From assembly GCA_021787205.1 (NCBI GenBank), contig JAJYME010000005.1, positions 1 to 49,661 of the forward strand: DNA of 49,661 bases, given 5' to 3'. Numbering within the stretch: position 1 is the stretch's first letter; every line of letters begins with the position of its first letter. The DNA comes from a bacterium (GTDB taxonomy: Bacteria > Patescibacteriota > Minisyncoccia > UBA6257 > Colwellbacteraceae). The notes beneath the pieces are model-generated. The model made no database searches. It was not told where the DNA came from and saw nothing but the letters and a program-made list of their open reading frames with translations. A program made the translations under genes and the position numbers. Of this stretch, positions 1,270 to 25,448 are shown piece by piece.

Positions 1270-1323
1270 ATTTTACCAAATAAGATGTTAAGAAAAGGTA
1301 AAAAATTGTTAAGGAATTGTTAA
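1270..1323 (-). promoter_or_regulatory. Direct-repeat box array 1 (TTAACA-N5 type) with extended -10
   Basis: Minus strand TTAACA-ATTCC-TTAACA-ATTT-TTTACC-TTTTC-TTAACA, then 10 nt ending TGG, then TAAAAT. Confidence 0.8.
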
Positions 1324-1451
1324 AGTTTTACAAAATACCAGATAAAATGCGGTTTTAAAAAGTGATTTTCCTGATAAAAATCTTATCTACAGGACAATGT
1401 AATAAATTAGGCAAAACAAAAACAAGGCGATTGCCTTGTTTTTTTGAAACC

Positions 1452-2777
1452 TTATATCTTTTTAAGGACGAGGGCCATGAACATTGGAATCTCCTTTCGA
1501 GCCCTGTTCTCGGCATCAGCTCTCGCGCCGACGCTGTTTTTCTCGGAAACCCATTCTTCAAGACGGGTAACGGCGAGACCAGCCTTATCAAACGCCTTGA
1601 AATAATGCTGAAGCGGATGATGAAAAGAAACAGTCGTCTCGGAAGTCTTATCACCGGGATGCATCTCTATAGTCTCCCTCGAATCGGAAATATAGCGCTC
1701 TATCTTTCTGTATTGGACGCTATGATCTTCAGCAAAGCCCCAAGAGGATTGCTTCGGAATTCGGAAGCAAGGATGATTCAAGACAATAACAATCCTGCCA
1801 TCATCTTTGATGACGCGGCTCATCTCCGCCACGACCTCCCTATCTTTCTCGATGTTCTGCAATGCCAGAACGATAGCCGCCTTATCGTATGATTTATCAG
1901 CAATAGCTGACATGTCGTCCGCGGGCGAGACCATATATTCTATTTCCGCAGGAGAATTTTTCTTAGCAAGCTCGATAAGCTCAGGAGAAATATCAGCTCC
2001 TGTAACCTTGGCGCCAGCCTCGTGAAAAGCGCGGCTCATATTGCCTTCTCCGCAAGCGAATTCGATAACGCTATCACCTGGTTTGATATCCATCAAGCGA
2101 ACAAGATTGGGAATAATCAGACTCTTCTGATAGCTATCCTCTTTCGCAACCGTACCTTGGTACCAAGCGGCTACCTTACCCCAAGAAGTTTCCTTCTTAT
2201 CGGCAACGGTTTCGCTGGCAGCGAACTTGTCTTCAAACTTTCTGTCAAAGCTTCTCGGACGATCTCCGAAGCTCCTCCTGGCACCGAAACCACCCCGATC
2301 ACCAAAGCTCTTTCTTTCACCGAAGGGCTTTCTGTCGCCGAAGCTTCTGGGACGATCACCAAAGCTCCTTCTTTCACCAAAAGGTTTTCTATCGCCAAAG
2401 CTCTTTCTTTCACCAAAAGGCTTTCTGTCGCCAAATTCTTTTCTGGCACCGAAACCGCCTCGATCACCAAGGCTCTTTCTTTCACCGAAGGGCTTTCTGT
2501 CGCCGAAGGGCTTTCTGTCACCGAAGCTTCTGGGACGATCACCAAAGCTCCTTCTTTCACCAAAAGGTTTTCTGTCGCCAAAACTCCTTCTTTCGCCGAA
2601 GCCCTCGCTCTTTGATCCAAATTCTCTTTTCTTAAAACCTCCTTGTCGGTCGCCGAACTTTTTATCGCCGAACCCGCCTCTATCGCCAAAGCTCTTTCTA
2701 GCCCCGAATCCTCTTCGGTCGCCAAAGCTTTTTCCATCTCTTCTGCCGCCTTTATTTTCTCTTTTAAAATTATTCAT
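1452..2777 (-). CDS. Class I SAM-dependent methyltransferase with a long N-terminal low-complexity repeat region
   Basis: C-terminal half has VIEFACGEG (motif I), VTGADISPELIELA and IVLNHPCF. N-terminal ~180 aa consists of FG[D/E]Rxx repeats. Confidence 0.85.
   Translation of the reverse strand: MNNFKRENKGGRRDGKSFGDRRGFGARKSFGDRGGFGDKKFGDRQGGFKKREFGSKSEGFGERRSFGDRKPFGERRSFGDRPRSFGDRKPFGDRKPFGERKSLGDRGGFGARKEFGDRKPFGERKSFGDRKPFGERRSFGDRPRSFGDRKPFGERKSFGDRGGFGARRSFGDRPRSFDRKFEDKFAASETVADKKETSWGKVAAWYQGTVAKEDSYQKSLIIPNLVRLMDIKPGDSVIEFACGEGNMSRAFHEAGAKVTGADISPELIELAKKNSPAEIEYMVSPADDMSAIADKSYDKAAIVLALQNIEKDREVVAEMSRVIKDDGRIVIVLNHPCFRIPKQSSWGFAEDHSVQYRKIERYISDSRETIEMHPGDKTSETTVSFHHPLQHYFKAFDKAGLAVTRLEEWVSEKNSVGARADAENRARKEIPMFMALVLKKI
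2243..2730 (-). repeat. Coding tandem repeat, ~18-nt (6-aa) unit FG[D/E]R(KP/RS/KS/GG)
   Basis: More than 20 degenerate copies are visible in protein and DNA, including longer duplicated blocks such as GCTTCTGGGACGATCACCAAAGCTCCTTCTTTCACCAAAAGGTTTTCT. Confidence 0.9.
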
Positions 2778-3794
2778 TTATTTTTTGAACCAAACATTAC
2801 CATCAACTTTGATTTCATATGCCGTAACGGTCGGGAATTGTTTCAGAATAGTCGCCAACTGACTCTTCATTCCCCTTGCAGCGCAGTCATCTTTCAAAGA
2901 CGGAAGCAGTTCTTTTGAGAAATCAATTATGACATCTTTTCCGTCATTGTCAAATTGAAAGCGATTGATTTTGATAGTCCCAGGGAAAGCAGTTTTCAGC
3001 CCCGCTTTGGTTTCAGTCGCCACCGGACCAGACATCGCCTCCTCGATCGAAGCCCTGATTGACGAACGCGAAGCGTTGATTAGACGGGATTTCAAAACGA
3101 CGGCACCGCATTTGGAACCTTGAAGATAAGGGATATTAACCTTAGCCATCATCCCTCCTTTATAAGTGAAGGAGAAGTTCCTGATATCATTTCCCTGAAT
3201 AACCGATATCTTTACATTATCGCCATCCATGATGTCGTTGGCGGTCTTGAGATCAGCAACGAAGGCGAACTTCTTATAGTATTCCAAACCGGAGGGAAGG
3301 GAGATGTCGTCCTCCAGATATTTTTCCCCAGTCCTCGTATTCTGGACCGAGACCTTAATGCCATCGCCAGTCGGATGTATATAACCCTCGACATTAAAAC
3401 TTATATTGACGGGGGTCAGCGATTGGGGCGCCGAGATGATCACAGGAGGCAATTCGGAAATGACAATCGAATCGGCCAGGTTATCCTTGTTGGTAACACC
3501 AACCGAAATACCGGGAGCCAAATAGGTGAGGTTTGCGGGATTGCCCTTATCATCAACAATCTGGGTCTTTTCATCAAGATTGAATTTCTCAACTCCGACA
3601 TCGGTCGAGACAGCAATCTCGGTCGACGAAACGGAGATTACCTTGCCGGAAACAATTGTCCTTTTAAGCCCGGGGAGATTTTGAATGATCCCCGGCTCAT
3701 TGGTCGGCTTGTTCATTATTTTAAAAACAAAATAACCGCCGAGTGCTAATATGACCACGATTAAGATTATTGTTAAAGCTCTTTTAACATTCAT
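2778..3794 (-). CDS. Membrane-anchored protein with C-terminal GerMN domain
   Basis: N-terminal TM helix. C-terminal EEAMSGP...LKTAFP...IIDFSKE...QLATILKQFPTV...IKVDG is typical of GerMN. Confidence 0.75.
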   Translation of the reverse strand: MNVKRALTIILIVVILALGGYFVFKIMNKPTNEPGIIQNLPGLKRTIVSGKVISVSSTEIAVSTDVGVEKFNLDEKTQIVDDKGNPANLTYLAPGISVGVTNKDNLADSIVISELPPVIISAPQSLTPVNISFNVEGYIHPTGDGIKVSVQNTRTGEKYLEDDISLPSGLEYYKKFAFVADLKTANDIMDGDNVKISVIQGNDIRNFSFTYKGGMMAKVNIPYLQGSKCGAVVLKSRLINASRSSIRASIEEAMSGPVATETKAGLKTAFPGTIKINRFQFDNDGKDVIIDFSKELLPSLKDDCAARGMKSQLATILKQFPTVTAYEIKVDGNVWFKK

Positions 3795-3835
3795 GATATT
3801 TTTATTATAGCTTTTCTCCCGCTTCCCTGAAAGTG

Positions 3836-3863
3836 AAAAACACTCCTAACGGGAGTGTTTTTT
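3836..3863 (-). terminator. Intrinsic terminator after the znu operon
   Basis: AAAAACACTCC-TAACG-GGAGTGTTTTT hairpin with A/T tracts. Confidence 0.75.
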
Positions 3864-3868
3864 GATTC

Positions 3869-4687
3869 TTATTTATTTTCAGTCTTGATAAGCGATAAGA
3901 CGCCGAACAAGAAAAGAACCGCTGAGCCGATGATGACAATGGTGGCGCCGGTCGGAAGATTAAGGATATAGGAAATAAGAAGACCGGAGACGACGATCAT
4001 TTCCGAAGAGATGACCGAGGCCCAGACGACACCCCGGAAAGACTTGGCGATAAATCTGGAGATGGAAACCGGGATAATCATCATCGAGGAAACAAGCATG
4101 ATTCCCAAAACCTTGATGCCAAGGACGACAGTCACCGCGGTGATAATGTAAAACAAGGGTTTCAAGACATCTACCCTCATGCCGCTAGTCTTAGCCAGGT
4201 CCTCGTCCAAAGACATCACTGTGAGCTCCCTCTTAAAAAGAAGCAAGAAGACCAGGAGAACTAGAGCGATACCGCTGATCAGATAAACTTCGCTCTGCCT
4301 GACAGAAAGAATGTTGCCAAATAAGAAACTCATCAACTCCGGCTTATAGCCCTTCGAGAAGCCGATAAAAAGAGCGCCTAGCGCCATACCGAAGGAGAAG
4401 ATAATCCCGATAGCCGAATCTCCCGAAATCCCCTTCTTTTCCAAGACATAAATGACGAGGGAAAAGATGATGGCGGAGACGATGGCGGTAAGCAAAGGAC
4501 TGGTGCCCAAAAGCAATCCGAGGGCGATACCCGAGAGGCTGGCGTGAGCGATTCCCTCACCGAAGAAAGACATCCTCTTAAGGGTGATAAAGACGCCTAG
4601 ATAGCTTATCAAGCCGCCCAAGATCAGGCCGATGACAAGAGCCCGGCTCATAAAGGCATATTGAAAGATGTTCAAAAAATTATCCAT
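3869..4687 (-). CDS. znuB: Zn/Mn ABC transporter permease
   Basis: RMSFFGEGIAHASLSG motif, multiple TM helices, operon context. Confidence 0.88.
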   Translation of the reverse strand: MDNFLNIFQYAFMSRALVIGLILGGLISYLGVFITLKRMSFFGEGIAHASLSGIALGLLLGTSPLLTAIVSAIIFSLVIYVLEKKGISGDSAIGIIFSFGMALGALFIGFSKGYKPELMSFLFGNILSVRQSEVYLISGIALVLLVFLLLFKRELTVMSLDEDLAKTSGMRVDVLKPLFYIITAVTVVLGIKVLGIMLVSSMMIIPVSISRFIAKSFRGVVWASVISSEMIVVSGLLISYILNLPTGATIVIIGSAVLFLFGVLSLIKTENK

Positions 4688-5414
4688 GGTTGTGATGTAT
4701 TGAATGCGCGTGACCGTGGCGATTGGTTTCTTTCAGATGACTTGAGGTATAGATGTCTTCCATTTTTTCAGAATTCAGCAATTCCTCGGGACTGCCGATG
4801 GAGATTATCTCCTTATTGATAGCGACGACCTTATCGGCAAAGCGATAGACCAGATCTATCTCGTGAGAGACGAAGACGATGCTTGTCGCATATTCGTCCC
4901 TGACCTTATTCACAAGCTCGGCAAATTCCTTGACCCCTTTAGGATCGATTCCGGTAGTAGCCTCGTCAAGCAGGATGAGGCAAGGATGCAAAATGACCGC
5001 CTTGGCGAGCATTACCTTCTGCAATTCGCCACCAGAGAGATCGCCGATCCTTTTGTCCAACAATCCGGAGATATCGATAACTGACAAAACACCTTCGATT
5101 TCCTTATCGCTGACGGCAGTCGTCATCTTTATAAATTCACGGACCAGAAGCGGAAAATTCTTGTCGAAGACAAACCGCTGGGGAACGTAGCCGATGTGCT
5201 TAACCCGAGAATGATTCTTATTCCCGCAGACGGAAATGTCTCCTTCATAAGGGATGAGGTCCAGGACGGCTTTCAAAGTCGTCGTCTTCCCGGCGCCGTT
5301 CGGCCCGATAAGAGCTACGATCTCCTTCGGCATGACATCGAAAGAAACGTCCTTCACGAGCTCGACGCCCTTGACCGCGATATTCAGATTTTTTACTGAT
5401 AAAATAGGATTCAT
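4680..5414 (-). CDS. znuC: Zn/Mn ABC transporter ATP-binding protein
   Basis: GPNGAGKT, IGYVPQ, LSGGE, LLDEA; His-rich tail. Confidence 0.88.
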   Translation of the reverse strand: MNPILSVKNLNIAVKGVELVKDVSFDVMPKEIVALIGPNGAGKTTTLKAVLDLIPYEGDISVCGNKNHSRVKHIGYVPQRFVFDKNFPLLVREFIKMTTAVSDKEIEGVLSVIDISGLLDKRIGDLSGGELQKVMLAKAVILHPCLILLDEATTGIDPKGVKEFAELVNKVRDEYATSIVFVSHEIDLVYRFADKVVAINKEIISIGSPEELLNSEKMEDIYTSSHLKETNRHGHAHSIHHNHG

Positions 5415-5415
5415 A

Positions 5416-6309
5416 TTATCTTAAAGCATCTTTGATACTGATGACGTTTCGACGCATAAGGCTGATGTAGGTATCCCCCGGCATTCCACCTTCGGCATCC
5501 AAGATGCCGGTTTTCAAGTAGTAATCTTTGGCAAAAGAGTCGACTACATCCCGGGAAAACTCCGGTTCGTAAAAGACCGCCTTGGCGTGAGCATAGTTTG
5601 CCGCATCGCCGACAGCTTTGATATTTCCAGGGGTTATTTCCTTGCCCGGAGAAGAGAGAAGGACAGCAGCGATCTTAAGATCATAACGGCTGGCAAAATA
5701 TCCCCAAGCGTCATGGAAGGTGATAAGGCCCTCCCCGGCAAACGGCTGAAGCTCCTGCTTGATCTCATTGTCCAGGCTCGCAAGGTCTCCATCCAACTTC
5801 TTATAGTTAGCGGTATAGGTATTCCTGCCTTCAGGATCGGTTTCTACCATCCGATCATAAATATTCCTTGCCATAATCTGGGCATTGGACGGGATCGTCC
5901 AATAATGCGGATCATAACCAGTCCCCTCGCTGCCCGCCTCTTCGCCAAATGCCTTTATTTCAAATTTTTGGAAAGGAATATCCTTGTCTACCTTGTAAAG
6001 TTTGTTTCCGGAAACGGAATCGATCCAATCATCGACAATCCCGATCTTAAAGACAACTCTCGAAGTGGCTACGCGCGACGCCACCTGAGGGGTAATCTCA
6101 AAGGTGTGGGGAGAGGCTCCCTGAGGCAGGATCAAACGGACTTCGGCCCTGTCTCCAGCGATTTCCCGAGCCAGATCATAAACCGGGAAAATAGTGGCGG
6201 CATAAGTTATCTTATCCGATTTTGGGGACTTATTCCCCGATAAGGCAAAAAGGACGACGCCCCCGACGATAACAACTAGAAAGGCGGCCATTGCCAACAT
6301 TTTTTTCAT
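5416..6309 (-). CDS. znuA: Zn/Mn ABC transporter substrate-binding protein
   Basis: SPHTFE, DPHYW, TFHDAWGYF metal-ligand motifs. Start moved to ATG at 6309, 7 nt after TATACT. Confidence 0.88.
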   Translation of the reverse strand: MKKMLAMAAFLVVIVGGVVLFALSGNKSPKSDKITYAATIFPVYDLAREIAGDRAEVRLILPQGASPHTFEITPQVASRVATSRVVFKIGIVDDWIDSVSGNKLYKVDKDIPFQKFEIKAFGEEAGSEGTGYDPHYWTIPSNAQIMARNIYDRMVETDPEGRNTYTANYKKLDGDLASLDNEIKQELQPFAGEGLITFHDAWGYFASRYDLKIAAVLLSSPGKEITPGNIKAVGDAANYAHAKAVFYEPEFSRDVVDSFAKDYYLKTGILDAEGGMPGDTYISLMRRNVISIKDALR

Positions 6310-6415
6310 AATTGTAAGTATAGCCAAAGACAGGCAGGAAATCCAAATGAGGAGAAAGCAGGAGCCAAGGGTTCCTATTTTTGACGAACGCAGGAATTTT
6401 ATGAGCGAAACAAAT

Positions 6416-6441
6416 AAAATCCCGCCAGGGGGCGGGATTTT
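6416..6441 (-). terminator. Intrinsic terminator after nrdG
   Basis: AAAATCCCGCC-AGGG-GGCGGGATTTT. Confidence 0.75.
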
Positions 6442-6443
6442 AT

Positions 6444-7133
6444 TTATCTTGAAAAAATGCTTTCCGAAAGATGAGGGAGGGCGGCTTTGAGGATTCCGGC
6501 CACTTCTTCTGAGGAGTGGACCTTATCCGGTTTGGTTATCCCTCCGAGAGTCTTCTCATATCTGATGTCCTGGAGATAATATTTTTCCTTCGGCAAAAGA
6601 TCCTTGGCAATCTCGAAATAATCCTCTATCTCAAAAAGATTAGGGTAGATGGTCGTCCTGAATTCATAAGATATGTCAGAAGAGCGCAAGATCTCCATAC
6701 TCTCCAGGAAGTGCTCATATTTGAAGTTCTCTCCGGAAATAAAAATATATTTATTTTTTGGAGCCTTGATATCCATTGCCACATAATCAACCAGATTATT
6801 TTTCAAAAGATCGGAAACCATCTTGGGATTCGAACCGTTGGTATCAAGCTTTATTTTAAAACGGATAGCTCTTAAGGCGGTCAAGAACTCCGGGAGGTCG
6901 CTCTGGAGAGTCGGTTCCCCGCCGGTGATTACCACACCGTCAATCATCTTTTTGGAATTCTTAAGGATCTCCAAGATATCAGGCTCGCTCAGCAACTTTC
7001 CGGAATAATTATTGATGAGATCGGGATTGTGGCAATAAGGACAACGAAAATTGCAGCCAGCGGTAAAAACGATCGAAGAGATCGTCTCCGGGAAATCAAT
7101 CAAACTTAATTTTTGGAAGCCGCCGATAAGCAT
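6444..7133 (-). CDS. nrdG: Anaerobic ribonucleotide reductase activating protein (radical SAM)
   Basis: GCNFRCPYCHN, ITGGEPTLQ, KLDTNG; adjacent to nrdD. Confidence 0.93.
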   Translation of the reverse strand: MLIGGFQKLSLIDFPETISSIVFTAGCNFRCPYCHNPDLINNYSGKLLSEPDILEILKNSKKMIDGVVITGGEPTLQSDLPEFLTALRAIRFKIKLDTNGSNPKMVSDLLKNNLVDYVAMDIKAPKNKYIFISGENFKYEHFLESMEILRSSDISYEFRTTIYPNLFEIEDYFEIAKDLLPKEKYYLQDIRYEKTLGGITKPDKVHSSEEVAGILKAALPHLSESIFSR

Positions 7134-7149
7134 TCTTCTTTTACCTTTA

Positions 7150-9207: not shown

Positions 9208-9408
9208 CGTTCTAATGTTCTTATTTTATTCTTATTATCCGACGTTTGTTTTATCTTAACTTCATTGTACCCCTTCGGGGCCGATATTGAACGAAACCCA
9301 AAAACAAGGCGGAATCCACCGGTTGGACAAAAAAATAAAAAAGTCGGCAAGTTCTCCACAGGAGATCGCCGACCATTTTTCTAGCTGTCAATGAAGTTAT
9401 ACACCGAA

Positions 9409-9837
9409 TTAAACGGAATGCGTCAAGATTTCCAGGATTTCAAAGGGATTGGCCTTGGTGTAGTTGCCAAATCTATCAGAGACGATAACTTTCTTCGCTT
9501 GAGGCGGAATCGCTTCTAAAATCGTGGTTTTATCCTGCTTGGTCGTCAGGATGAAGACCTCCTCATACTCGCTTTTCCAGTTAGTCTCAAGATATTTCTC
9601 CAGCTCTACAGCAAAATCCCTCTTTTCCATTTCCTCCAACTTTGATAGGGGTGCCCCTCCCAACTCGTGCCCGAAACGCCCCTCCTTGTCGGAATAATGG
9701 ACTTCCGGGGCTTTAATTTCAGAAATAAGATTAATCTCCCCGCTCAAGACAGCGTAAATATTGGCCGCTTTCTCAGCGGAGACGATAATTAAAGCCGACT
9801 TATCGATAAATTGCTTATAATTTTCTGATATTTTCAT
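9409..9837 (-). CDS. Hypothetical protein, possibly host-attachment/baeRF-like family
   Basis: Clean 142-aa ORF at the end of the pspC operon. The YSDKEGRF segment and size resemble this family; the family call is tentative. Confidence 0.55.
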   Translation of the reverse strand: MKISENYKQFIDKSALIIVSAEKAANIYAVLSGEINLISEIKAPEVHYSDKEGRFGHELGGAPLSKLEEMEKRDFAVELEKYLETNWKSEYEEVFILTTKQDKTTILEAIPPQAKKVIVSDRFGNYTKANPFEILEILTHSV

Positions 9838-9840
9838 ATT

Positions 9841-9990
9841 TTATTTGTTTGTATCCTTGTCATCGCCCTTTTTCTTATTGAGAAAGATAACCCAAGCCGC
9901 AGTCATAATAAGGAATGGAACTGAGAAAACGACGAGGAGGGTAAGGCAGATCAGCATCAACCGCGCCATTCCTCCGAAGATGGCTATCAT
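9841..9990 (-). CDS. Small single-pass membrane protein (49 aa), not in the ORF track
   Basis: MIAIFGGMARLMLICLTLLVVFSVPFLIMTAAWVIFLNKKKGDDKDTNK*; fills the gap between pspC and the next gene with 2-3 nt spacers. Confidence 0.75.
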   Translation of the reverse strand: MIAIFGGMARLMLICLTLLVVFSVPFLIMTAAWVIFLNKKKGDDKDTNK

Positions 9991-9992
9991 CG

Positions 9993-10235
9993 TTATTCCT
10001 TGCGCCTTCCGGCTTCAGCCTCTTCATCGGCCTTTCGATCCAAGTGATATGGCTCTTCAGGCACTACTGCGGAAGCGACAATATAAGCAAGCGCAGGTAA
10101 AAAGAACATTCCTATAAAAAGGAAAAAGATGTAAAAAACCCTGAGGATGGTGGGGTCGATATCAAGATATTCCCCGATACCTCCGATCAGACCGGTGATG
10201 ACTTTGTTATTTCGGCTTCGATAAAGCTTTTTCAT
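9993..10235 (-). CDS. pspC: PspC domain protein
   Basis: KKLYRSRNNKVITGLIGGIGEYLDIDPTILR...YIVASAVVPEEP. Confidence 0.9.
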   Translation of the reverse strand: MKKLYRSRNNKVITGLIGGIGEYLDIDPTILRVFYIFFLFIGMFFLPALAYIVASAVVPEEPYHLDRKADEEAEAGRRKE

Positions 10236-10241
10236 ATGATG

Positions 10242-10296
10242 ATTATATCACAAAAGATGTTAAGAAAAGGTAAAAAAATTGTTAAGGAATTGTTAA
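10242..10296 (-). promoter_or_regulatory. Direct-repeat box array 2 with extended -10; leaderless pspC promoter
   Basis: Hexamers at plus-strand 10291, 10280, 10269, 10258 (11-bp period), 10 nt ending TGA, TATAAT, 6 nt, ATG. Confidence 0.85.
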
Positions 10297-10346
10297 AGAA
10301 TAATCAAGAAAAAGAAAAAACCGCCCAAGATGAGCGGTCGAGATAA

Positions 10347-12043: not shown

Positions 12044-12045
12044 GA

Positions 12046-12073: not shown

Positions 12074-12084
12074 GGTTTAAGGTT

Positions 12085-13260: not shown

Positions 13261-13261
13261 A

Positions 13262-15214: not shown

Positions 15215-15216
15215 GA

Positions 15217-17260: not shown

Positions 17261-17315
17261 AACTTTATTATTATATGTTTATTTTAGGATTAGGTAAACT
17301 ACTTTGCTATGCATA

Positions 17316-17747
17316 TTACCCCTTGTTTACCAAGGTGATCCTTTTCACCTTTATCAATTCCCCGTCGAGGATTCCGGTGACCTTCGCCCGAATCCCAGCG
17401 GTCAGCAAATCAGCCGAGCAGGCGGACGCTTCCCCGCCGAAATCGCAAATGCTTGACCGATCGAGGACTAGGGCCTTGCGGATGGCTGGGATTCCCGGCA
17501 ATTCATAGAGAAAAGCCTTGCCGGTATTGGTCTCCACGATATATCCTTCACTCTCAAAGAGATTGCCAACATTGCCAGCCTTCTTGCTTGCCTGGTAAGA
17601 ACCGGCGGCGTAGAACTTATCTTCCTTGCTCTTTTCGGAAGCCTTTTGAAGAGCTGGAGGGAGGATGGCGCCGATAACGACAAACATGATCATGATGAGG
17701 ATCAGAGCAATGTGTTTTAGGGGACGAATATCGGGATGCATATCCAT
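17316..17747 (-). CDS. Hypothetical membrane-anchored protein
   Basis: N-terminal hydrophobic helix; YELPG and a Cys pair in the soluble part. Confidence 0.65.
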   Translation of the reverse strand: MDMHPDIRPLKHIALILIMIMFVVIGAILPPALQKASEKSKEDKFYAAGSYQASKKAGNVGNLFESEGYIVETNTGKAFLYELPGIPAIRKALVLDRSSICDFGGEASACSADLLTAGIRAKVTGILDGELIKVKRITLVNKG

Positions 17748-17962
17748 ATAATTCTATTAAAATATATCCAAAAGGTAAAATGACGAAATCAAAATCGACG
17801 CTGCCACCCCCCCCCGGCAAGTCGCGATGTTTCACACCGACCAATCAATATCGCAGCGCCCGCCAGTGTTTGAAACATAAACTTTCCTTCAATCATCGAA
17901 GCCCTAAGCAATGAAGAGCAAAGCGGTTGTTATTTTGACCCAAAAAGGCTAGACTTTGAAAA

Positions 17963-18406
17963 ATGCTTTATTCAGACATCGTTTGGGAGCACTACAAGAA
18001 TCCCAACAATTTCGGAAAACTGAAAAAATACGATTTTGAATTCGAAGATGTGAATGCCAAATGCGGAGACTCCGTCAAATGGTTCTTCAAAATAGACGGA
18101 GACAAATTAACGGACGTCAGTTTTGAAGGTCAGGGGTGCGCCTTATCAGTCGCCGGGTGCTCGATAATATCAGAGTTCTTCAAAGGAAGGGCGCTAAAGA
18201 AGATTATCGCCGCCAAAGACGAAGAGATATGGGATATTTTAGGATTCGAGCCCTACCCGGGTAGAATCCTGTGTTCGACCTTAGGGTTCTCCTCAATAAG
18301 AAAGGCCCTGATCGCCTATATCGAGAGCGCCAAACCGACCAATAAGAAAGTCAAAGACAAAAAAACCGCCAAACCGGCGAAAGTGGACAATAAGGCTAAA
18401 AAGTAG
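17963..18406 (+). CDS. sufU: SufU/IscU-family Fe-S scaffold or sulfur-transfer protein
   Basis: EHYKNPNNFG, NAKCGD, GQGCALS, RILC; Lys-rich tail. Confidence 0.88.
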   Translation: MLYSDIVWEHYKNPNNFGKLKKYDFEFEDVNAKCGDSVKWFFKIDGDKLTDVSFEGQGCALSVAGCSIISEFFKGRALKKIIAAKDEEIWDILGFEPYPGRILCSTLGFSSIRKALIAYIESAKPTNKKVKDKKTAKPAKVDNKAKK

Positions 18407-18451
18407 CATAATTCAGCCAGAAACTAACGAACTCTGAAAGGAGGGATTTCC

Positions 18452-18856
18452 GTGGGAGAGCACGAGGTCTATTATTTGCAAGAGGAAAAGTGGTGGCAAA
18501 AGATGCTGCCGGTAATCGAAAGATACGCAAAAGCAAAACCGGGACAAATCCAAAAGATCCTTTCCGCCCTGGATTTTATCTTGCTCTACAACACATTCGT
18601 TTCAGCACGTTCCCCGAGACTCAAGGCTGCCTGCTTTTATCTCCTTTGTCTTCTGATAAAGAAAGATTTCTCGGGCAACCTCCCGTTTTACCCGTTAAAG
18701 GACTTGTACCTGAAGTGCCCGCTGAATTACGAACCAAAGTGGAGCATCTCCGCCGCGATGCACATCGCCAAGTTCATTCCTGAGAGAGAACAAGCCTGGA
18801 TCTTATCCCTTCCCTGCCCGCATGCCGACTTTCCAGAAGGCTATGCGCCAGAATGA
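18452..18856 (+). CDS. Hypothetical protein
   Basis: GTG start with AAAGGAGG 7 nt upstream and TGGACA-N17-CATAAT; terminator directly after the stop. Confidence 0.65.
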   Translation: MGEHEVYYLQEEKWWQKMLPVIERYAKAKPGQIQKILSALDFILLYNTFVSARSPRLKAACFYLLCLLIKKDFSGNLPFYPLKDLYLKCPLNYEPKWSISAAMHIAKFIPEREQAWILSLPCPHADFPEGYAPE

Positions 18857-18890
18857 AAAAACGCCCTTTTACAAAGGGCGTTCTTTTTTT
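18857..18890. terminator. Bidirectional terminator
   Basis: AACGCCCTTT-TAC-AAAGGGCGTT followed by a T tract. Confidence 0.75.
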
Positions 18891-18896
18891 TATTGC

Positions 18897-20672
18897 TTAG
18901 GCAGAAAAGCCTTCGGATTGGATCTCATAGAGGCTCTTATACAAGCCGCCAAACTCCATCAATTCTTTATGAGTCCCCTGCTCGACGATACCGCCATCCT
19001 TGATAGCAATGATGCGATCCATCTTTTTGATGGTCGAAAGCCTATGGGCGATGATGATAACCGTCTTCCTTTTCATCAGATTCTCCAAGGCTTCCTGGAT
19101 AAGGACCTCGGACTCGGAATCCAGGGCGGAAGTCGCCTCATCCAAAATAAGAATCGGCGCATCTTTCAAGATAGCGCGGGCGATCGCAACCCTTTGCCTT
19201 TCGCCACCAGAGAGCTTGACTCCCCTTTCACCCACCTTTGTATCATAGCCTTCGGTAAAGTTAGCGATGAACTCATGGCAACGAGCCAACTTGGACGCTT
19301 CGATGACCTGCTCGTCAGTCGCCTCCGGCATCCCGTAGCGGATATTGTCCATCAAGCTTCTATGAAAGAGCGATGGATCTTGAGGCACATAAGCGACATT
19401 CTTCCATAAGCTCTCCTGGGTCACCTGGCTGATGTCCTGATTATCAATATCAATCTCGCCGCTTGTGACATCAAACGATCTTAAGAGAAGTTTGACGATG
19501 GTCGACTTCCCGGCGCCAGAGGGGCCGATAAAAGCGACTCTTTCTTTGGGTCTTATTTCAAAGGATAGATTGCTGATGACATCGGCGCCATTCTTGTATT
19601 TGAAACCGACATTCTTAAAAGTGATAGTTCCGTGATCGACGACAAGGTCTTTGGCTTCCTCGGCATCTTTGATTTCATGAGGAGTCAAAAGAATCTCAGT
19701 CATCTCGTTGGCTTCGGCAATGTTCTCATAATAACTCCTGATGACGCGATAAAAGCTCCAAATCCGATGAAAGATCAAGCTGATATAAGATTGAAGCAAG
19801 ACGAAACTGCCGATTGAGAAATTGCCAGCAGCATAAAGCCTGACCGCATAGACCAAAAGCCCGACCTCGAGAACGGTAAACAAGAGAGCTTGGATGCCGT
19901 TAAAAGCGGTACCCAATCCCCAGGAGGTTTTCCTCAATCTTCTGACAGCCTCATTCATTTTGGCGAAGAGACCTGTCTCCCTTTTATAACCGTTGAAGAG
20001 TTTTATGGTCGCATAGTTCGATACCGTATCAGCCAAGACGCCGCTTGTCTCTGACTCCGTCTCAGATAACTCGAGATCGTACTTCAGCTTGAATCTCGAA
20101 AAGGCGATACTGATGAACATATAAAAAACGATCCAGACAAGGATGACGACCGAGATGACGTAGCTCACATCCCAAAGGACGATAACGGCGGAGATGATAG
20201 TGACGATCATCGGGACAACCTCATAAATCAGATTATCCATAATCGCCTCAAACGCCCTCGAGAAACTCCTGACCCTCTTCACTAAAGCGCCGGAAAAATT
20301 GTCAGCAAAGAAACCGGAAGAGTGCTTGTGCAAATAAGCGAAGCACTTGTCCATCAGCTTCGACATTGAAAAAGATTCGAAATGGACGATGGAGAAATCA
20401 GACACTCTCCAGAGCAGCCAGCTTATCCCCTTCAGGACGGCGATGACGACAATGATTCCTAAAGCCGCAGAAACCGAAAAACCGCCCGAGAGCGAATCCA
20501 GGAACTTTTTCATATAAATAGGGGTAATGATATCCAGAATCGAGATAGTCACGATCGAGGCGATCATTAAGAAAAACAAACCCTTAAGCTCCATTGCCTG
20601 TTTCCAAAAAATCGCCAGGGTCTGCTTTGAGTAAGCCTTCCTATTCTTTTTTTCTGCTTTTTTATTCGACAT
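18897..20672 (-). CDS. ABC exporter, fused permease/ATPase (MsbA/Atm1-like)
   Basis: TM domain plus GPSGAGKST, LSGGERQRVAIARA, ILDEATSALD, IAHRLST. Start moved to ATG at 20672. Confidence 0.92.
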   Translation of the reverse strand: MSNKKAEKKNRKAYSKQTLAIFWKQAMELKGLFFLMIASIVTISILDIITPIYMKKFLDSLSGGFSVSAALGIIVVIAVLKGISWLLWRVSDFSIVHFESFSMSKLMDKCFAYLHKHSSGFFADNFSGALVKRVRSFSRAFEAIMDNLIYEVVPMIVTIISAVIVLWDVSYVISVVILVWIVFYMFISIAFSRFKLKYDLELSETESETSGVLADTVSNYATIKLFNGYKRETGLFAKMNEAVRRLRKTSWGLGTAFNGIQALLFTVLEVGLLVYAVRLYAAGNFSIGSFVLLQSYISLIFHRIWSFYRVIRSYYENIAEANEMTEILLTPHEIKDAEEAKDLVVDHGTITFKNVGFKYKNGADVISNLSFEIRPKERVAFIGPSGAGKSTIVKLLLRSFDVTSGEIDIDNQDISQVTQESLWKNVAYVPQDPSLFHRSLMDNIRYGMPEATDEQVIEASKLARCHEFIANFTEGYDTKVGERGVKLSGGERQRVAIARAILKDAPILILDEATSALDSESEVLIQEALENLMKRKTVIIIAHRLSTIKKMDRIIAIKDGGIVEQGTHKELMEFGGLYKSLYEIQSEGFSA

Positions 20673-20745
20673 ATCAAAGAATATGAGTTTATCACACGGG
20701 AGAATAAAAACAACCCCGCAGAAGCGGGATTGCGTATAAAAACAG

Positions 20746-21519
20746 TTATTTAATGCTAAAGACAGCACGGACCGTAAGCATTATTTCCTTATCCTCAGTC
20801 GAGGTATCGTAAGTGCCGTAATCTGAAATATCGACGGAATTAGGAGCCAAAACCTGAGTGACGCCGATTGATGAGCTTCTCAGCGATCCGACTTTGCTAT
20901 TGTCGGAGCCGGCAATCATCTCAGCTCTCTTCCTGGCATCCTTGACCGCCTCTCCGATAAGTTCGATTCTCTTTTCAGAAAGAGGGGTGTAATAATATTC
21001 CGGCGAACCGGGGTTAACAAGGATTCCGGATTCGAATAAGGGCTTGGTGTTATTGGCAACCGCCTTTATCTTGGCTATATCGTTCGATTTGACCTCGACG
21101 CTCTGATTAAAGGTATATCTGTCGGGCCCCTTCGAGCCGGATTTCTCATATTCATAGATCTTACCGGAATTCATAGTTGAGACCGAATATTCGCTCTCAG
21201 AGATTCCGTTATCCTTAAGGAAATCCTTAATGGTATTGAGGTCGGACTCCATCTCCCGAACTCCGGACTTCATATCGTCCTCGGTGACAGTCCTTGAGAA
21301 ATTGATCCTCCATTTAGCCAGATCAGACTTGACCTCGACTTTGGCTGAACCAGTAGTGGTCAGAGTGTTATCAAGAGCTTTTATCTTATAGGCGGTAACG
21401 GAAACGATGGTGAAAGCGATGACAATAAAGACCCCCAGAGCTCCTGCGGCGGCCGCATAAGGATTCTCGCGAATCCCCTTGTTTTCATCAATTATTTTTT
21501 TAACATTTGCCATCATCAT
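20746..21519 (-). CDS. SIMPL (DUF541) domain protein
   Basis: TTTGSAKVEVKSDLAKW, EAVKDARKRAE, DYGTYDTST. Confidence 0.85.
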   Translation of the reverse strand: MMMANVKKIIDENKGIRENPYAAAAGALGVFIVIAFTIVSVTAYKIKALDNTLTTTGSAKVEVKSDLAKWRINFSRTVTEDDMKSGVREMESDLNTIKDFLKDNGISESEYSVSTMNSGKIYEYEKSGSKGPDRYTFNQSVEVKSNDIAKIKAVANNTKPLFESGILVNPGSPEYYYTPLSEKRIELIGEAVKDARKRAEMIAGSDNSKVGSLRSSSIGVTQVLAPNSVDISDYGTYDTSTEDKEIMLTVRAVFSIK

Positions 21520-21555
21520 GGTATTAATTATACTCACTCAAAAAAAATTAACAAA

Positions 21556-21726
21556 TTATTTTGTGTCAAAATGCTCTTTGGTAATGACACCATCAGCACC
21601 GTTAACCATCATGAGCTTATGACACTTGCGACATTTCACCTCTACCTTTCCGGTTATTAACTCACCCTTGAAGAGAAGCTTTCCGCATTCGCAGCGAAAC
21701 TCTTGAAGATTAGATTGGGTTTCCAT
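21556..21726 (-). CDS. Mu Com-like zinc-ribbon protein (56 aa), not in the ORF track
   Basis: METQSNLQEFRCECGKLLFKGELITGKVEVKCRKCHKLMMVNGADGVITKEHFDTK*; RCxCxKLL...EVKCxxC pattern. Confidence 0.85.
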   Translation of the reverse strand: METQSNLQEFRCECGKLLFKGELITGKVEVKCRKCHKLMMVNGADGVITKEHFDTK

Positions 21727-21762
21727 ATTTAGTATAATTTATAACCTTTGTCTTGTTATTTA

Positions 21763-21828
21763 ATTATAGAAAATAAGATGTTAAGCCACGGTAAAAAAAA
21801 TGTTAAGGAATTGTTAAGGAATTGTTAA
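21763..21828 (-). promoter_or_regulatory. Direct-repeat box array 3 with -10
   Basis: Five hexamers at plus-strand 21823, 21812, 21801, 21790, 21779 (exact 11-bp period), 10 nt, TATAAT. Confidence 0.85.
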
Positions 21829-21855
21829 AAAACCCCGCAAAAGCGGGTTTTTTTT
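21829..21855 (-). terminator. Terminator after the kinase/terpene-enzyme operon
   Basis: CCCGC-AAAA-GCGGG hairpin flanked by A and T tracts. Confidence 0.7.
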
Positions 21856-21878
21856 ATTTTCATTTTTGGCGAGAAAAA

Positions 21879-23771
21879 TTATCCACAGGTTTTTGTGAAT
21901 TGGAGATAAGTTTTTCGATCAGCTAAAGTTCTTTCAGTTGCTAACCTTACCGGGGCAATTATTCTCGAAAGAATGACGCTCACATCCCCAAGGTGAGAGA
22001 GGTTTCCAGCCGCGGCCACCGCAGACGCCGAGTACTCCAGGGCCAACTTGCAGACAAGAGGAAGAACATCATTCCAAAAAATCTTATTGATTTCTACTTC
22101 ATCCTTAAGATCGATACCTCTCTTGGCGATAGCGTCCGTCAGAAGAGCGACGACGGGAGAAATCCTCCCCTTGGCTAAATCCTCGAAACAGTCTCTCAAG
22201 TCATCATTCAACTGCCTCGCAATGATATAATTTTTAAAGAAGCCGAGCACCGACGCGATCTCGACCGAGCCGACGGCATATCCAAGTTTCGAGAGGAGAA
22301 TAGTCGGCCCTAGGCTGTGACCCATCGACTTATCAGCGATGATGTCGAGCCGGCTGTATATTTTTCCATACCTCTCCTCCAAGGGACTGTTTTCAATACG
22401 GGCAGCTTCGATCTCCCAAAGGTTTCCGGCGTCCATTTTGTTAAGAATCGAAAGCGACAACCCGAAAAAATCGTCAGAAGATGAAGACTTCAATTCCGAG
22501 ACGACCTTTCTCAAACAATAATTAGCCAGGGGAAGATCGGCCGGATTCCCCTCACCATCCAAGAAACCGTCATAAATCGAATAAGCAATCCAACCACAAA
22601 GACTGACTACTCCTAAAGAAACAAGAAATTCGTCAGAGATCCCCTTCCGACTGTCAGAAGGCAAGCCGGAGGCGAGGAGAGAAGCGACCAGAATGATCTC
22701 CTGTTTTTCCTTCCCGGATGACACCGCTTCAAACCATCTGCTAAACGATTTCCTTAACCCGCCGCAATCGTCAAGATCAGCCTCGATATCCGATTTTACC
22801 TTCGAGAGAATACCGACTAGATAAGAATCATCCCGGGAAACCTCAGCCCCCGAACTTCCAGCGCGATTAATGACCTCGAGCGCCAAGGCTAGCTCAAGGT
22901 CGTAGGAACCGGAATAACTTTTGACACCATTCCTATTGGTCTCGACTACGAAAGGATAAATATTTCCGGACTCGGAATCTAACCAGTTGGCGATCTTTTC
23001 CACGTAGAGCGAGAGGTTGGAGGAATCGACACCACAATTCATCAACCCAAGGACGGAGAATGAGAGATCAAGCGGATTAGCCGCTTTGTCGATATTTTTT
23101 TCAAACCAGATTTTCAAATCCCCGATCTTCTCACCCCGATAGGCCCGGGAAACGAAATAAGCCACAGAAAATTCGGTTTCGTAGTAACGGGAAGAGAAGC
23201 TTCCCATCTCAATTGCCGACTCCATAAAACCGACAAGATTTGGCAGCTCAGCTCCAACTTTTGAAAGGGCGTAGGCGATATTGGCGTTAACCGCCAAGTC
23301 TACATCTTTCCACTTCTCAGCATCCGGGAGGGTGATCCAAGTATAATAAGGACCACCCTCAAAAGCCTCCTCAGAACTAAGGATCATGATGAGATAAGCC
23401 AGAGCCTCACCATCATTTTCGCCATTCAACAAATCCAACGAAGCAAAAGCCATCGAAGTCGAATCCAGGTCGTCCGGATAAGGGACGCTTGCCGCCGCCT
23501 CGGAGTTTCGACGCCAGTAATTGAAACATAAGCGGTCATTTCCCTGGGAGACCAAAAAAGATGTAAGCCGTTCGATAACCGGTTTGATTTCGGGATAAGA
23601 CTTAAGAGATTTGAAGGAATCAAGAATAAAAAAATTGGGAAAGACGGCGGAACTCGGTTTCTTATCGGCAAAATCCGGGTCGAAGGAGGTGAAAACTCGG
23701 AAGCCCTCCCTGATGTCGATCTTGGAAAGACGTGACAATTTAGTTTTTATTATCCGAGAATAATCAATCAT
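21879..23771 (-). CDS. Two-domain isoprenoid enzyme: class II terpene-cyclase-like domain fused to a class I isoprenoid-synthase/ComQ-like prenyltransferase domain
   Basis: N-half: FNYW...YPDDLDSTS, GGPYYTW, DVDLAVNANI, SRYY. C-half: IYDGFLDGE, DKSMGH, RQLNDDLRDCFEDLAKG. The ATG at 23771 overlaps the kinase stop. Confidence 0.72.
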   Translation of the reverse strand: MIDYSRIIKTKLSRLSKIDIREGFRVFTSFDPDFADKKPSSAVFPNFFILDSFKSLKSYPEIKPVIERLTSFLVSQGNDRLCFNYWRRNSEAAASVPYPDDLDSTSMAFASLDLLNGENDGEALAYLIMILSSEEAFEGGPYYTWITLPDAEKWKDVDLAVNANIAYALSKVGAELPNLVGFMESAIEMGSFSSRYYETEFSVAYFVSRAYRGEKIGDLKIWFEKNIDKAANPLDLSFSVLGLMNCGVDSSNLSLYVEKIANWLDSESGNIYPFVVETNRNGVKSYSGSYDLELALALEVINRAGSSGAEVSRDDSYLVGILSKVKSDIEADLDDCGGLRKSFSRWFEAVSSGKEKQEIILVASLLASGLPSDSRKGISDEFLVSLGVVSLCGWIAYSIYDGFLDGEGNPADLPLANYCLRKVVSELKSSSSDDFFGLSLSILNKMDAGNLWEIEAARIENSPLEERYGKIYSRLDIIADKSMGHSLGPTILLSKLGYAVGSVEIASVLGFFKNYIIARQLNDDLRDCFEDLAKGRISPVVALLTDAIAKRGIDLKDEVEINKIFWNDVLPLVCKLALEYSASAVAAAGNLSHLGDVSVILSRIIAPVRLATERTLADRKTYLQFTKTCG

Positions 23772-25170
23772 CTTTTTTTTCAAATAAAGGAATCTGGACA
23801 AGAAAGACCGTCCCTATCTCTTGATCGCTGTCGAAAGCCACGATCCCATTGAAGTCCTCGTAGACCGAACTGCGGACGATGCCTAAGCCGAGACCGACCC
23901 CCTCCTTGCCGGTGGAAAAGAAGTTTTTGAAAATCCTTCTTTTGTTTTCCTCTTTGATGCCGCAACCAAAATCAAAGATTTCAAGGATATAATAACCCCC
24001 CTTCGAAAAGCTCTTGATAACAATTCTCCTATTGTCCTCCCTCTCAACCGTTTCATAAGCGTTGATACCGTTCGAGACAAGATTAGAGACGATATGAGAG
24101 AACTTAACGACTGACCCGCAGATCCTTTTCTCATCCCCGTCCGAGAGAAATTCAAAAACGATATTCCCCTTCTTAGCCTTGTAAGTCATAAAACCGAGAA
24201 CATCCCGTATCTCGTCGTCCGGGTTGAAGACAACCTTTTCCGCCCCCTTCAGTCTTCTCTTGTTTGAGTCCAGAAACTTTTCAAAATCACTCTTGGCTTC
24301 GTGAAACTCCTCCAAATACTCCTTGGCTCTGGTCACCTCTTCGCTTCCGCTCATCTTCTCGTCCATCGTCAACATCAAGACGCCGAGATGATTAGCGAGA
24401 TCGTGGAAGATTCCCGAAGAAAGCTTTCCGAACTCAATAAATCGGGAAGCTTGATTCATCTGATCCCGGTGTTGTTTCTCCAGCTCCTCAGTCCTTTCTT
24501 TAACCTTTATTTCCAAACTGTCCTTTTCGACTCTCAGATCGGACTCGGATTTTTTCAGGCGGCCGAAAGCCTTTTTTATCTCATGGTTGTAAAGATAAGA
24601 GATGATAAAAACAAAGATAATCGAAAAGGAGTAGACAAAGACGTCGACTAACTCGGTCGGCAACATCTTCCAAGATGTCGACGGCACGACGAGCCCTATC
24701 TCCTCGAGATAGAATACGCCGCTGATTGAAAAAAGAGATGAGACCAGCATAAAGACAGTAAACAGGTTATCGGTGAGAATAGAAGCGATGAGGATGGCAA
24801 TGATGTGAAGCAATAAAGCTTGGGGTACCGCGACTCCCCACGAAAGCATCGAGACAACGGCAAAGAACAAATAGAACAAGGACAGGAACTTTGAGGCGAC
24901 AAGTTGGTTTCCAGACATCGCTAAGACCCCCAGGAGGATTAGAAACAGCAAGACATTGACCGCTGTCTGAAGATCAGTGACTTCATTCGACCTGAAAGCA
25001 ACCAGACACATGGCGATCACGGCGACGAGAACCAGCCCGGTAGATAGTCCGAGCAAGATCTTAAGGATCGAGTATTTATGAATATCGTAAGACTCCTCCC
25101 TGTCGAAGTCGAGGATTCGCTTCAAAAGAGAAACAATCCTGTCTTTGAAAAAATCAGCTGTCAATCTCAT
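23764..25170 (-). CDS. Membrane sensor histidine kinase (about 6 TM, HisKA + HATPase_c)
   Basis: GIFHDLAN H-box, NLVSNGINA N-box, DFGCGI, FFST, GVGLGL. Start moved to ATG at 25170 because the longer ORF runs through a terminator and the peptide gene. Confidence 0.92.
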   Translation of the reverse strand: MRLTADFFKDRIVSLLKRILDFDREESYDIHKYSILKILLGLSTGLVLVAVIAMCLVAFRSNEVTDLQTAVNVLLFLILLGVLAMSGNQLVASKFLSLFYLFFAVVSMLSWGVAVPQALLLHIIAILIASILTDNLFTVFMLVSSLFSISGVFYLEEIGLVVPSTSWKMLPTELVDVFVYSFSIIFVFIISYLYNHEIKKAFGRLKKSESDLRVEKDSLEIKVKERTEELEKQHRDQMNQASRFIEFGKLSSGIFHDLANHLGVLMLTMDEKMSGSEEVTRAKEYLEEFHEAKSDFEKFLDSNKRRLKGAEKVVFNPDDEIRDVLGFMTYKAKKGNIVFEFLSDGDEKRICGSVVKFSHIVSNLVSNGINAYETVEREDNRRIVIKSFSKGGYYILEIFDFGCGIKEENKRRIFKNFFSTGKEGVGLGLGIVRSSVYEDFNGIVAFDSDQEIGTVFLVQIPLFEKKDD

Positions 25171-25194
25171 GGATATTATTACGTAATTTAGAAG

Positions 25195-25220
25195 AAAAAG
25201 ACCCGCTCCAAGGAGCGGGT
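25195..25220 (-). terminator. Intrinsic terminator of the small peptide gene
   Basis: Minus strand ACCCGCTCC-TT-GGAGCGGGT-CTTTTT, 8 nt after the peptide stop. Confidence 0.8.
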
Positions 25221-25228
25221 GAAAAAAC

Positions 25229-25342
25229 TTACAGCCAAGGATCACCCAAGACTCCGACAGTCGTCAGGACAAAAGCGCTTGAAAGCAGAGAATTGCGGAG
25301 ATTCTTGTCGGTCAGCATCTTCTGGAGAAGTTCTTTTTTCAT
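25229..25342 (-). CDS. 37-aa peptide, candidate ComX-like pheromone precursor; not in the ORF track
   Basis: MKKELLQKMLTDKNLRNSLLSSAFVLTTVGVLGDPWL*; has its own promoter (TGA-TACAAT), A-rich start context and terminator. The single Trp is penultimate. Confidence 0.75.
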   Translation of the reverse strand: MKKELLQKMLTDKNLRNSLLSSAFVLTTVGVLGDPWL

Positions 25343-25382
25343 TATTTTATTTTTTGATTCCTTCGACCTTTGTTGTAATTCT

Positions 25383-25448
25383 ATTGTATCACGCCGACCC
25401 CCTTAAAAAAGTTAAGGAATTGTTAAGGAATTGTTAAGGAATTGTTAA
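25383..25448 (-). promoter_or_regulatory. Direct-repeat box array 4 with extended -10 (peptide gene promoter)
   Basis: (TTAACAATTCC)x3 TTAACT, 21 nt ending TGA, TACAAT; same register as arrays 1-3. Confidence 0.85.

Follow-up and report, generated by a model that had tools for sequence, protein, structure and literature searches.

Among described regulatory systems, pho-box promoters such as those of Escherichia coli PhoB, Bacillus subtilis PhoP and Streptomyces PhoP are the closest to the sites considered here. Such promoters carry a ~6-nucleotide (nt) box followed by 5 variable nt, repeated once per helical turn, and the number of units varies, with a conserved core accompanied by weaker extension units. 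The site replaces the -35 element, ends ~10 nt before the -10 hexamer, and is read by a regulator of the OmpR/PhoB family. The B. subtilis PhoP box is TT(A/T/C)ACA, and the sites of ArcA, SaeR, CtrA and WalR have related half-sites. A PHO box comprises 6 conserved and 5 variable nucleotides; in Streptomyces, PhoP binds cooperatively to 11-nt units, whose number varies, starting from the conserved core (excerpt of PMC2275107). Arrays of this architecture, built on the hexamer TTAACA, are found in a 49,661-nt stretch of DNA, here called the window, from a bacterium of the Colwellbacteraceae (Patescibacteriota; contig JAJYME010000005.1 of assembly GCA_021787205.1). The window makes up the first of the 11 contigs of this 616-kb genome, whose completeness is estimated at 96%. 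Judging from their sequence, the arrays are very probably docking sites of the only OmpR-type regulator in this genome, and they probably serve as pho-box-type operators from which that single regulator activates transcription at the -35 position.

A second group of described systems bears on the genes beside the arrays. In the MgrB-PhoQ type, a small membrane peptide feeds back on a sensor kinase. The ComQXPA quorum-sensing loci of Bacillus and other Firmicutes combine a small pre-peptide with an invariant tryptophan (Trp), an enzyme of trans-isoprenyl-diphosphate-synthase (trans-IDS) fold, a polytopic kinase and a regulator; the excerpted text of a 2014 census reports no such locus outside the Firmicutes (PMC4008528). 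In the StheQ/StheX pair of Sphaerobacter, the prenylated Trp of StheX is second from the C-terminus (excerpt of bioRxiv 10.64898/2026.08.29.745113). Finally, the fused prenyltransferase-cyclase enzymes ChrPC and NctPC act on Trp of ribosomal peptides (excerpt of PMC13290415). Almost nothing is known about gene regulation in ultra-small, uncultivated Patescibacteria.

The four arrays of the window are designated W1 to W4, and two more on contig C2 are designated C2a (C2:44062-44100) and C2b (C2:63657-63695). The window arrays, their -10 hexamers and the proposed reader are as follows, with boxes given in the direction of transcription.

1286-1323, minus: array W1; boxes 1323-1318, 1312-1307, 1302-1297 (TTTACC) and 1291-1286
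1270-1275, minus: W1 -10 hexamer TAAAAT, with TGG before it, 10 nt after the proximal box
10258-10296, minus: array W2; boxes 10296-10291, 10285-10280, 10274-10269 (TTTACC) and 10263-10258
10242-10247, minus: W2 -10 hexamer TATAAT, with TGA before it, 10 nt after the proximal box
21779-21828, minus: array W3; boxes 21828-21823, 21817-21812, 21806-21801, 21795-21790 (TTTACC) and 21784-21779
21763-21768, minus: W3 -10 hexamer TATAAT, 10 nt after the proximal box
25410-25448, minus: array W4; boxes 25448-25443, 25437-25432, 25426-25421 and 25415-25410 (TTAACT); proximal position empty
25383-25388, minus: W4 -10 hexamer TACAAT, with TGA before it, 21 nt after the last box
25474-26154, minus: response regulator of the OmpR/PhoB family, 226 amino acids (aa), with Response_reg and Trans_reg_C domains; proposed reader of the boxes

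The arrays are composite. Two to three perfect 11-nt units, TTAACAATTCC, are followed by a weaker TTTACC box and then by a promoter-proximal TTAACA, and the number of units ranges from 2 to 3.5. The most perfect array is W4, with three perfect units plus TTAACT (3.5 units); one unit of W1 is only 10 nt long. The original prediction had placed four arrays at these minus-strand positions and described each as TTAACA-ATTCC-TTAACA with a period of ~11 bp. All four are present in the sequence, and the boxes and the period stand, but the uniform pattern must be amended to take in the TTTACC boxes, the 10-nt unit of W1 and the TTAACT of W4. The promoter geometry was confirmed by counting: the last hexamer lies 10 nt from the -10 hexamer in W1, W2 and W3, while the peptide promoter at W4 has no proximal box and its last hexamer is 21 nt (10 + 11) away. 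A TG one base 5′ of the -10 hexamer gives W1, W2 and W4 an extended -10. As had also been claimed, a canonical -35 is missing: inspection and a promoter consensus scan found no TTGACA-like hexamer 16–18 nt upstream of the proposed -10 boxes, and the scan paired only the array boxes themselves with non-promoter hexamers. In a near-identical strain, one contig spans W4, with no indel among the differences listed.

The arrays are far from a chance product of base composition. With up to one mismatch, TTAACA-N5-TTAACA has 8 matches in the window, compared with 0.15 ± 0.36 in 100 dinucleotide-preserving shuffles, none of which reached 8. Seven of these matches fall in W1–W4, and the eighth (3771–3787), within coding sequence, looks like a chance match. 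When all contigs were scanned, as had been suggested for checking the prediction, six arrays were recovered, namely W1–W4 plus the two on contig C2, all of them direct repeats of a ~6-nt box with a 10–11-nt period and a single orientation toward the gene. Five of the six are in register with a -10 hexamer and lack a -35. The distance from box to -10 is fixed at 10 nt in four (W1, W2, W3 and C2b, where TATAAT follows the proximal box) and is one turn longer in W4. Exact same-strand TTAACA pairs 6–40 nt apart tell the same story genome-wide, as 19 of 23 are spaced by 11 nt (8 pairs), 22 nt (6) or 33 nt (5), and the other four are single cases at 21, 27, 32 and 36 nt. A relaxed scan (10–12-nt spacing, one mismatch) adds only isolated pairs, which have no third box, no ATTCC spacer and no in-register TATAAT; the motif therefore marks six places in the genome and nothing else. 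W2, W3, C2a and C2b each have a terminator-like hairpin immediately before them and so are separate, insulated promoters rather than sites internal to operons. Full-text literature searches with the 11-mer on either strand, and with TTAACA together with Pho box, found no description of the motif.

The gene of the proposed reader ends 26 nt upstream of W4. Its product has the one match to Trans_reg_C (PF00486) in the whole genome; the two other proteins with a receiver domain, encoded by open reading frames (ORFs) of 140 and 151 aa, have no Trans_reg_C match. The best NCBIfam models for the regulator are of the CopR/CusR subfamily (183.9 against a cut-off of 279), with PhoB second, and all scores are below the cut-offs; the PhoB equivalog models gave 169.6 bits against 296.2 and 161.3 against 270. 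The box TTAACA fits the B. subtilis PhoP consensus. The earlier inference that the adjacent regulator acts through the boxes agrees with all the in-silico tests made, namely the 6+5 form, the -35 position, the single Trans_reg_C protein, the boxes before phosphate genes elsewhere and the phased repeats before the peptide gene of relatives. It had been argued partly from PhoP and WalR consensus sequences; the general 6+5 form of such sites is documented (excerpt of PMC2275107).

The same box recurs in other phyla. The exact 20-mer TTAACAATTCCTTAACAATT was found at 29 loci in species-representative genomes and at 70 metagenome loci; by our own arithmetic, a random 20-mer of this composition would be expected a handful of times in the ~600 Gb concerned. 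A third exact TTAACA, which the search pattern does not demand, stands one period further on in 30 of 94 distinct contexts, against a background of 0.0006 per position. The genes downstream were surveyed at 63 sites by taking the first ORF of at least 100 aa, a procedure that drops shorter ORFs and sites without one; some of the loci are closely related to one another. Among these 63 ORFs were 5 of PstS type, 1 PHO4, 4 phosphate-selective porins (one of them a weak match) and 3 OmpR-type regulators, with the box right at the promoter of the last three. Five regulators beside 20-mer sites were classified, always below the cut-offs: PhoB was the best model for three, the Bacteroidetes PhoB model for one, and MtrA, followed by PhoB, for the fifth. 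From these contexts, the 20-mer is likely a pho box common to several other phyla, and there is a high likelihood that TTAACAATTCCTTAACAATT is read by OmpR/PhoB-family proteins there. Since it precedes phosphate genes and PhoB-like regulators elsewhere, regulators of this family plausibly read this box.

Two groups of loci illustrate the range of contexts. The 20-mer, often with three boxes, stands before pstS-type, pitA-type and phosphate-porin genes at L029, L031, L096, L117, L077, L027, L067, L079 and L101, and the L029 group includes Ignavibacteria-type and other genomes. In a group of metagenome loci with a common contig-name prefix (L056, L059, L065, L070, L083, L089, L104, L108, L116 and L124), some contigs carry the 20-mer twice, usually with a third box, and the sites precede genes for DUF3943 proteins, HlyD-type proteins, a sigma-70 factor and small secreted proteins. 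L070 and L124 also encode an OmpR-type regulator plus a kinase, and the same arrangement is seen in two Treponema bins (L036 and L050). This second group looks like a large regulon with the same box in another phylum.

W4 stands before a signaling cassette that follows the regulator gene on the minus strand:

25229-25342, minus: peptide gene, 37 aa, with a conserved N-terminal leader and a Trp second from the C-terminus
25201-25220, minus: terminator-like hairpin between the peptide and kinase genes
23764-25170, minus: histidine kinase, 468 aa, with HATPase_c and about six hydrophobic segments in the first 200 residues
21879-23771, minus: fusion protein, 630 aa, class II terpene-cyclase-like plus trans-prenyl-diphosphate-synthase-like, overlapping the kinase stop
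21834-21847, minus: terminator-like hairpin that ends the cassette operon, directly upstream of W3

The following sequence of events is proposed. The phosphorylated regulator would bind the boxes in succession, head-to-tail along one helical face, occupying the perfect core units first and then, through cooperativity, TTTACC and the proximal box. The region from about -72/-61 to -23 would then be covered by four to five protomers, and regulator bound at a -35-replacing site that ends 10 nt before an extended -10 would recruit RNA polymerase, as in class II activation. Five promoters would respond: those of the peptide/kinase/enzyme operon, the pspC operon, the Zn-ribbon/SIMPL operon, the beta-helix leader and gene, and a ~290-nt RNA on contig C2. 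The sixth array, C2a, would be a relic without a -10. W4 would drive the peptide gene strongly, and read-through of the hairpin at 25201–25220 would extend transcription into the kinase and enzyme genes and close a positive loop. As W4 lacks the proximal box, the protein bound there would sit one turn further upstream, and the earlier suggestion that this may give the peptide promoter a different threshold or sign is a reasonable one.

The inferred mechanism is thus of the classical pho-box type, and what is new would be the link of this cassette to a defined box and regulon. The differences from pho-box systems lie in the rest of the circuit, as Pst and PhoU are missing here, the targets are envelope, surface and signaling genes, and the kinase is polytopic and not PhoR. 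The result is a complete six-site regulon hypothesis for the only OmpR-type regulator of the genome, and one that is cheap to test. It would also provide the Trp-peptide/terpene-enzyme cassette with outputs, namely peptide feedback, envelope-stress-type and surface proteins, and an RNA.

Relatives were examined for the cassette and its promoter. Among 301 genomes sampled from the order, the fusion protein was found in 10, counting the present one, and its gene adjoins a homologous kinase gene in six relatives (G006, G017, G018, G114, G193 and G290). A homologous regulator (38–45% identity) is encoded at the cassette in all six except G114, and a small ORF precedes the kinase gene in all six. 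Ahead of the peptide gene, 8-mers repeated at 11–12 nt with at most one mismatch are found in four of the seven cassettes, counting this one. G017 and G114, from two different families, both have AATCTTTA as the repeat, and in G193 the repeat is AGATATAT, with 11 nt and then TATAAT after it; the peptide promoters of G018 and G290 have weaker repeats. Near the regulator homologs of the relatives no repeats were found within 1.5 kb, and none upstream of the regulator genes. The recognition helix of relatives reads SNTIE(T/A)H... in four of eight aligned sequences, compared with SRVVETY... here. The predicted promoter architecture is conserved and the box sequence is not, which is weaker evidence than conservation of sites, although it is what would be expected if box and helix co-evolve. 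Counts of the G017 box, TCTTTA-N5-TCTTTA, in five genomes are close to those of a reversed-pattern control, and the three other exact matches in G017 lie in apparent coding sequence; as a result, no regulon can be drawn for the relatives.

Several observations weigh against the arrays being activating operators of this one regulator, and some of them lend weight to other explanations. The 40 nearest genomes contain only two isolated single pairs of the exact motif, both with other spacers, so conservation of these very sites cannot be shown; boxes upstream of orthologs, which had been suggested as a check, were not found there in the exact form. In addition, G006 has no repeats before its peptide gene, and C2a has neither a -10 nor a promoter. 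W1, C2a and C2b have a common, terminator-like flank, and W2 has an identical 39-nt core in common with them. The ATTCC spacer varies no more than the box does, as would also be expected after recent duplication or slippage. The array copies are accordingly in part duplicates and not independent. These facts, together with 39-nt cores that are nearly the same down to their spacers, with a copy number that varies from 2 to 3.5 units and with one copy being fused to a truncated gene, would suit a duplicated promoter/repeat module that was spread by recombination and slippage and is constitutive, for instance through phased A/T-rich bending like that of an UP element. Such a module is improbable, as the flanks of W2, W3 and W4 are unrelated and, in other phyla, regulated phosphate genes and genes for PhoB-like regulators follow the same box. 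Marginally less improbable is a different DNA-binding protein as the reader, such as another small helix-turn-helix protein of the genome. The recognition helix of the regulator, SRVVETYISLLRKK, is indeed unlike that of PhoB-like regulators encoded next to this box in other phyla, and a comparison among regulators so placed revealed no clear residue code. On the other hand, head-to-tail 6+5 boxes with an 11-nt period are a signature of the OmpR/PhoB family, the genome has one such protein whose gene abuts the best array, and the cassette peptide promoters of relatives also have phased repeats.

The alternative that comes closest, though still unlikely, retains the regulator and reverses its effect: bound from about -72 to -23, it would keep RNA polymerase off the promoter, and repression would be relieved or imposed by the signal. 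The proximal box overlaps a region that the polymerase must contact, and OmpR-family proteins can repress through PHO boxes that overlap promoter elements (excerpt of PMC2275107). However, none of the promoters has a -35 with which to fire unaided, and the boxes stop 10 nt before the -10 and leave both it and the start site free, which is the geometry of an activator. Least probable of all, and by now very doubtful, is that the regulator is PhoB and that the boxes form the Pho regulon of the organism, responding to phosphate starvation. The identical 20-mer before pstS, pitA and phosphate-porin genes elsewhere, and PhoB as the second-best NCBIfam model, speak for it. However, the genome has no match to a PstS-type protein (PBP_like_2) or to PhoU, for which controls match in 13 of 14 reference genomes, and this argues against a Pho regulon, as does the fact that none of the six targets is a phosphate-acquisition gene. 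Moreover, the PhoB score of 169.6 is far below 296.2, and the polytopic kinase scores 34.5 as PhoR, the cut-off being 334. The case is a useful caution that one and the same box can belong to different regulons. Together, the four alternatives account for about a quarter of the probability, and activation by the OmpR-type regulator remains the preferred account.

The cassette invites comparison with ComQXPA, since four neighboring genes correspond in kind: those of a small pre-peptide with an invariant Trp, an enzyme of predicted trans-IDS fold, a polytopic kinase and a response regulator. It differs in that the regulator is of OmpR type (Trans_reg_C) and not of NarL/ComA type, the enzyme has an extra class II cyclase domain and no polyprenyl_synt match, and the gene order is different. 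No report of ComQ/ComX in Patescibacteria was among the literature matches listed. The seven peptides have a common leader (consensus MKKLIKKILTDKxAR) and a variable C-terminus, from which an invariant Trp is two to four residues away; M1, L10, R16 and W36 are invariant in all seven cassettes, and the position of W36 in the window peptide is the same as that of the prenylated Trp of StheX.

The enzyme resembles the ChrPC type, in which a trans-IDS-like prenyltransferase and an MstE-like class II cyclase are likewise joined in one polypeptide, although the likeness is one of fold only. The 630-aa protein itself has no Pfam or NCBIfam match, and it has 20 homologs in a large protein collection, where the only source name bearing a taxon is Patescibacteria. 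Of these 21 family members, seven weakly match SQHop_cyclase_C, four match Prenyltrans, and single members match terpene-synthase families; none has a sequence match to polyprenyl_synt, the family of ComQ. The alignment keeps the Asp-rich motifs PYPDDLDDT (here DDLDST), YDDFLD (YDGFLD) and NDDAHD (NDDLRD). In the AlphaFold2 model (mean predicted local distance difference test score, pLDDT, 90.2), Foldseek matched the N-terminal half to drimenol synthase (E 2e-9), MstE (6sbb, E 6e-5) and small squalene-hopene cyclases, and the C-terminal half to trans-polyprenyl diphosphate synthases (E ~1e-4). Unlike in the ChrPC type, the cyclase-like domain is N-terminal here, and the setting is a two-component signaling operon with a proposed autoregulated promoter rather than a natural-product cluster.

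A modeled complex of enzyme and peptide scored 0.74, whereas the best of three controls scored 0.00. Of 80 solved complexes, 58 reach that mark, as do 2 of 110 mismatched pairs; these counts hold only roughly here, as small alignments made for this analysis were used. The runs share at least 55% of contacts, the partner pLDDT is at least 54, and confident contacts join peptide residues 1–19, the leader, to enzyme residues 115–178 and 618–626. The model supports binding of the peptide through its leader, a mode of recognition with precedent among modified ribosomal peptides. Probably, the cassette attaches a terpene group to the Trp of the peptide, and the product is a signal that the polytopic kinase senses. 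Like MgrB, the peptide is encoded by a very small gene beside a kinase gene and is, by the present proposal, regulator-activated, but hydrophobicity of its C-terminal half is confined to some of the relatives. Both the invariant Trp and the modeled docking of the leader favor a modified, exported peptide over one of MgrB type. A mere small membrane protein was also considered and is less likely, the C-terminal half being polar in three of the seven homologs (G018, G193 and G114).

A wider circuit of the quorum-sensing kind can be put forward tentatively, as possible rather than probable. In such a circuit, the kinase would sense the terpene-cyclized prenyl-Trp peptide, the regulator would switch on the operon of the peptide itself along with envelope, surface and RNA genes, and W4 would be the low-threshold feedback promoter. 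If true, this would be the first peptide-signaling regulon to be defined within the candidate phyla radiation. A difficulty is the prenyl donor for the proposed signal, which is left unexplained, as no polyprenyl synthase is recognizable: polyprenyl_synt (PF00348) has no match in the genome at its estimated 96% completeness. In the genome, a prenyl-synthase fold was noticed only in the C-terminal domain of the fusion protein. With the promoters as reporters in another host, one could search for the signal and ask whether these episymbiont-like bacteria communicate.

A further feature of the cassettes is the word GGTCG(A/G), which lies 20–40 nt before the peptide start in all seven (window 25353–25361; L142, L143, L144, L145, L147 and L148). 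It reads AAAGGTCGA in four of them, and in several it is in the loop of a short hairpin. The word is too far upstream to be a usual ribosome-binding site.

The other arrays precede genes of various kinds. The targets originally named (the peptide, the Com-like Zn ribbon, the pspC operon and the transcript upstream of the beta-helix gene) hold up as predicted targets, and to these the two sites on contig C2 must be added. The remaining features of the window are as follows.

2-1117, minus: secreted right-handed beta-helix protein, which runs off the contig and continues on contig C10
1118-1269, minus: W1 leader, ~150 nt, with a terminator-like hairpin at 1199-1220
9308-9320: terminator-like site after the pspC operon
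9409-10235, minus: pspC operon, encoding a PspC-domain protein (80 aa), a 49-aa membrane peptide and a 142-aa protein without assigned function
10319-10339: terminator upstream of W2, which directly follows it
18897-20672, minus: MsbA-like ABC exporter, behind a terminator-like hairpin at 20710-20733
20746-21537, minus: SIMPL/DUF541 protein with an N-terminal membrane anchor
21556-21726, minus: Zn-ribbon protein, 56 aa, a weak match to the Com family (E 0.0022, below cut-off)

At W2, the -10 ends 6 nt before the ATG of pspC (10233–10247), so the mRNA is probably leaderless. Downstream of W3, the Zn-ribbon gene belongs to the module in relatives too, as its homolog directly follows the fusion-enzyme gene in G006. 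Membership of the ABC exporter in the regulon is uncertain. PspC and the SIMPL protein suggest an envelope program.

On contig C2, the ~290 nt downstream of C2b (C2:63344-63639, 296 nt, minus) contain no plausible ORF and end in a terminator-like hairpin. This stretch folds with z = -4.5, and none of 200 shuffles folds as well, which makes it a candidate regulator-dependent structured RNA. It matches no Rfam family; a gathering search of Rfam matched only 16S rRNA and a tRNA and an E-value search gave only sub-threshold, terminator-like matches; BLAST found no homolog of the 296-nt RNA in 40 relatives. C2a, for its part, is fused within C2:42300-44100 to a 5′-truncated ORF without a ribosome-binding site that corresponds to the C-terminal two thirds of the W1 beta-helix protein; the fusion was left either by recombination between arrays or by a join made in assembly where the array is repeated. 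For the W1 leader as well, an E-value search gave only sub-threshold, terminator-like matches and no Rfam family. Two hairpins at 1156–1220 of that leader have the same stem, TTCCCGC...GCGGGAA, the first being followed by a T-run, and they could constitute, in front of the beta-helix gene, an attenuator or a short RNA.

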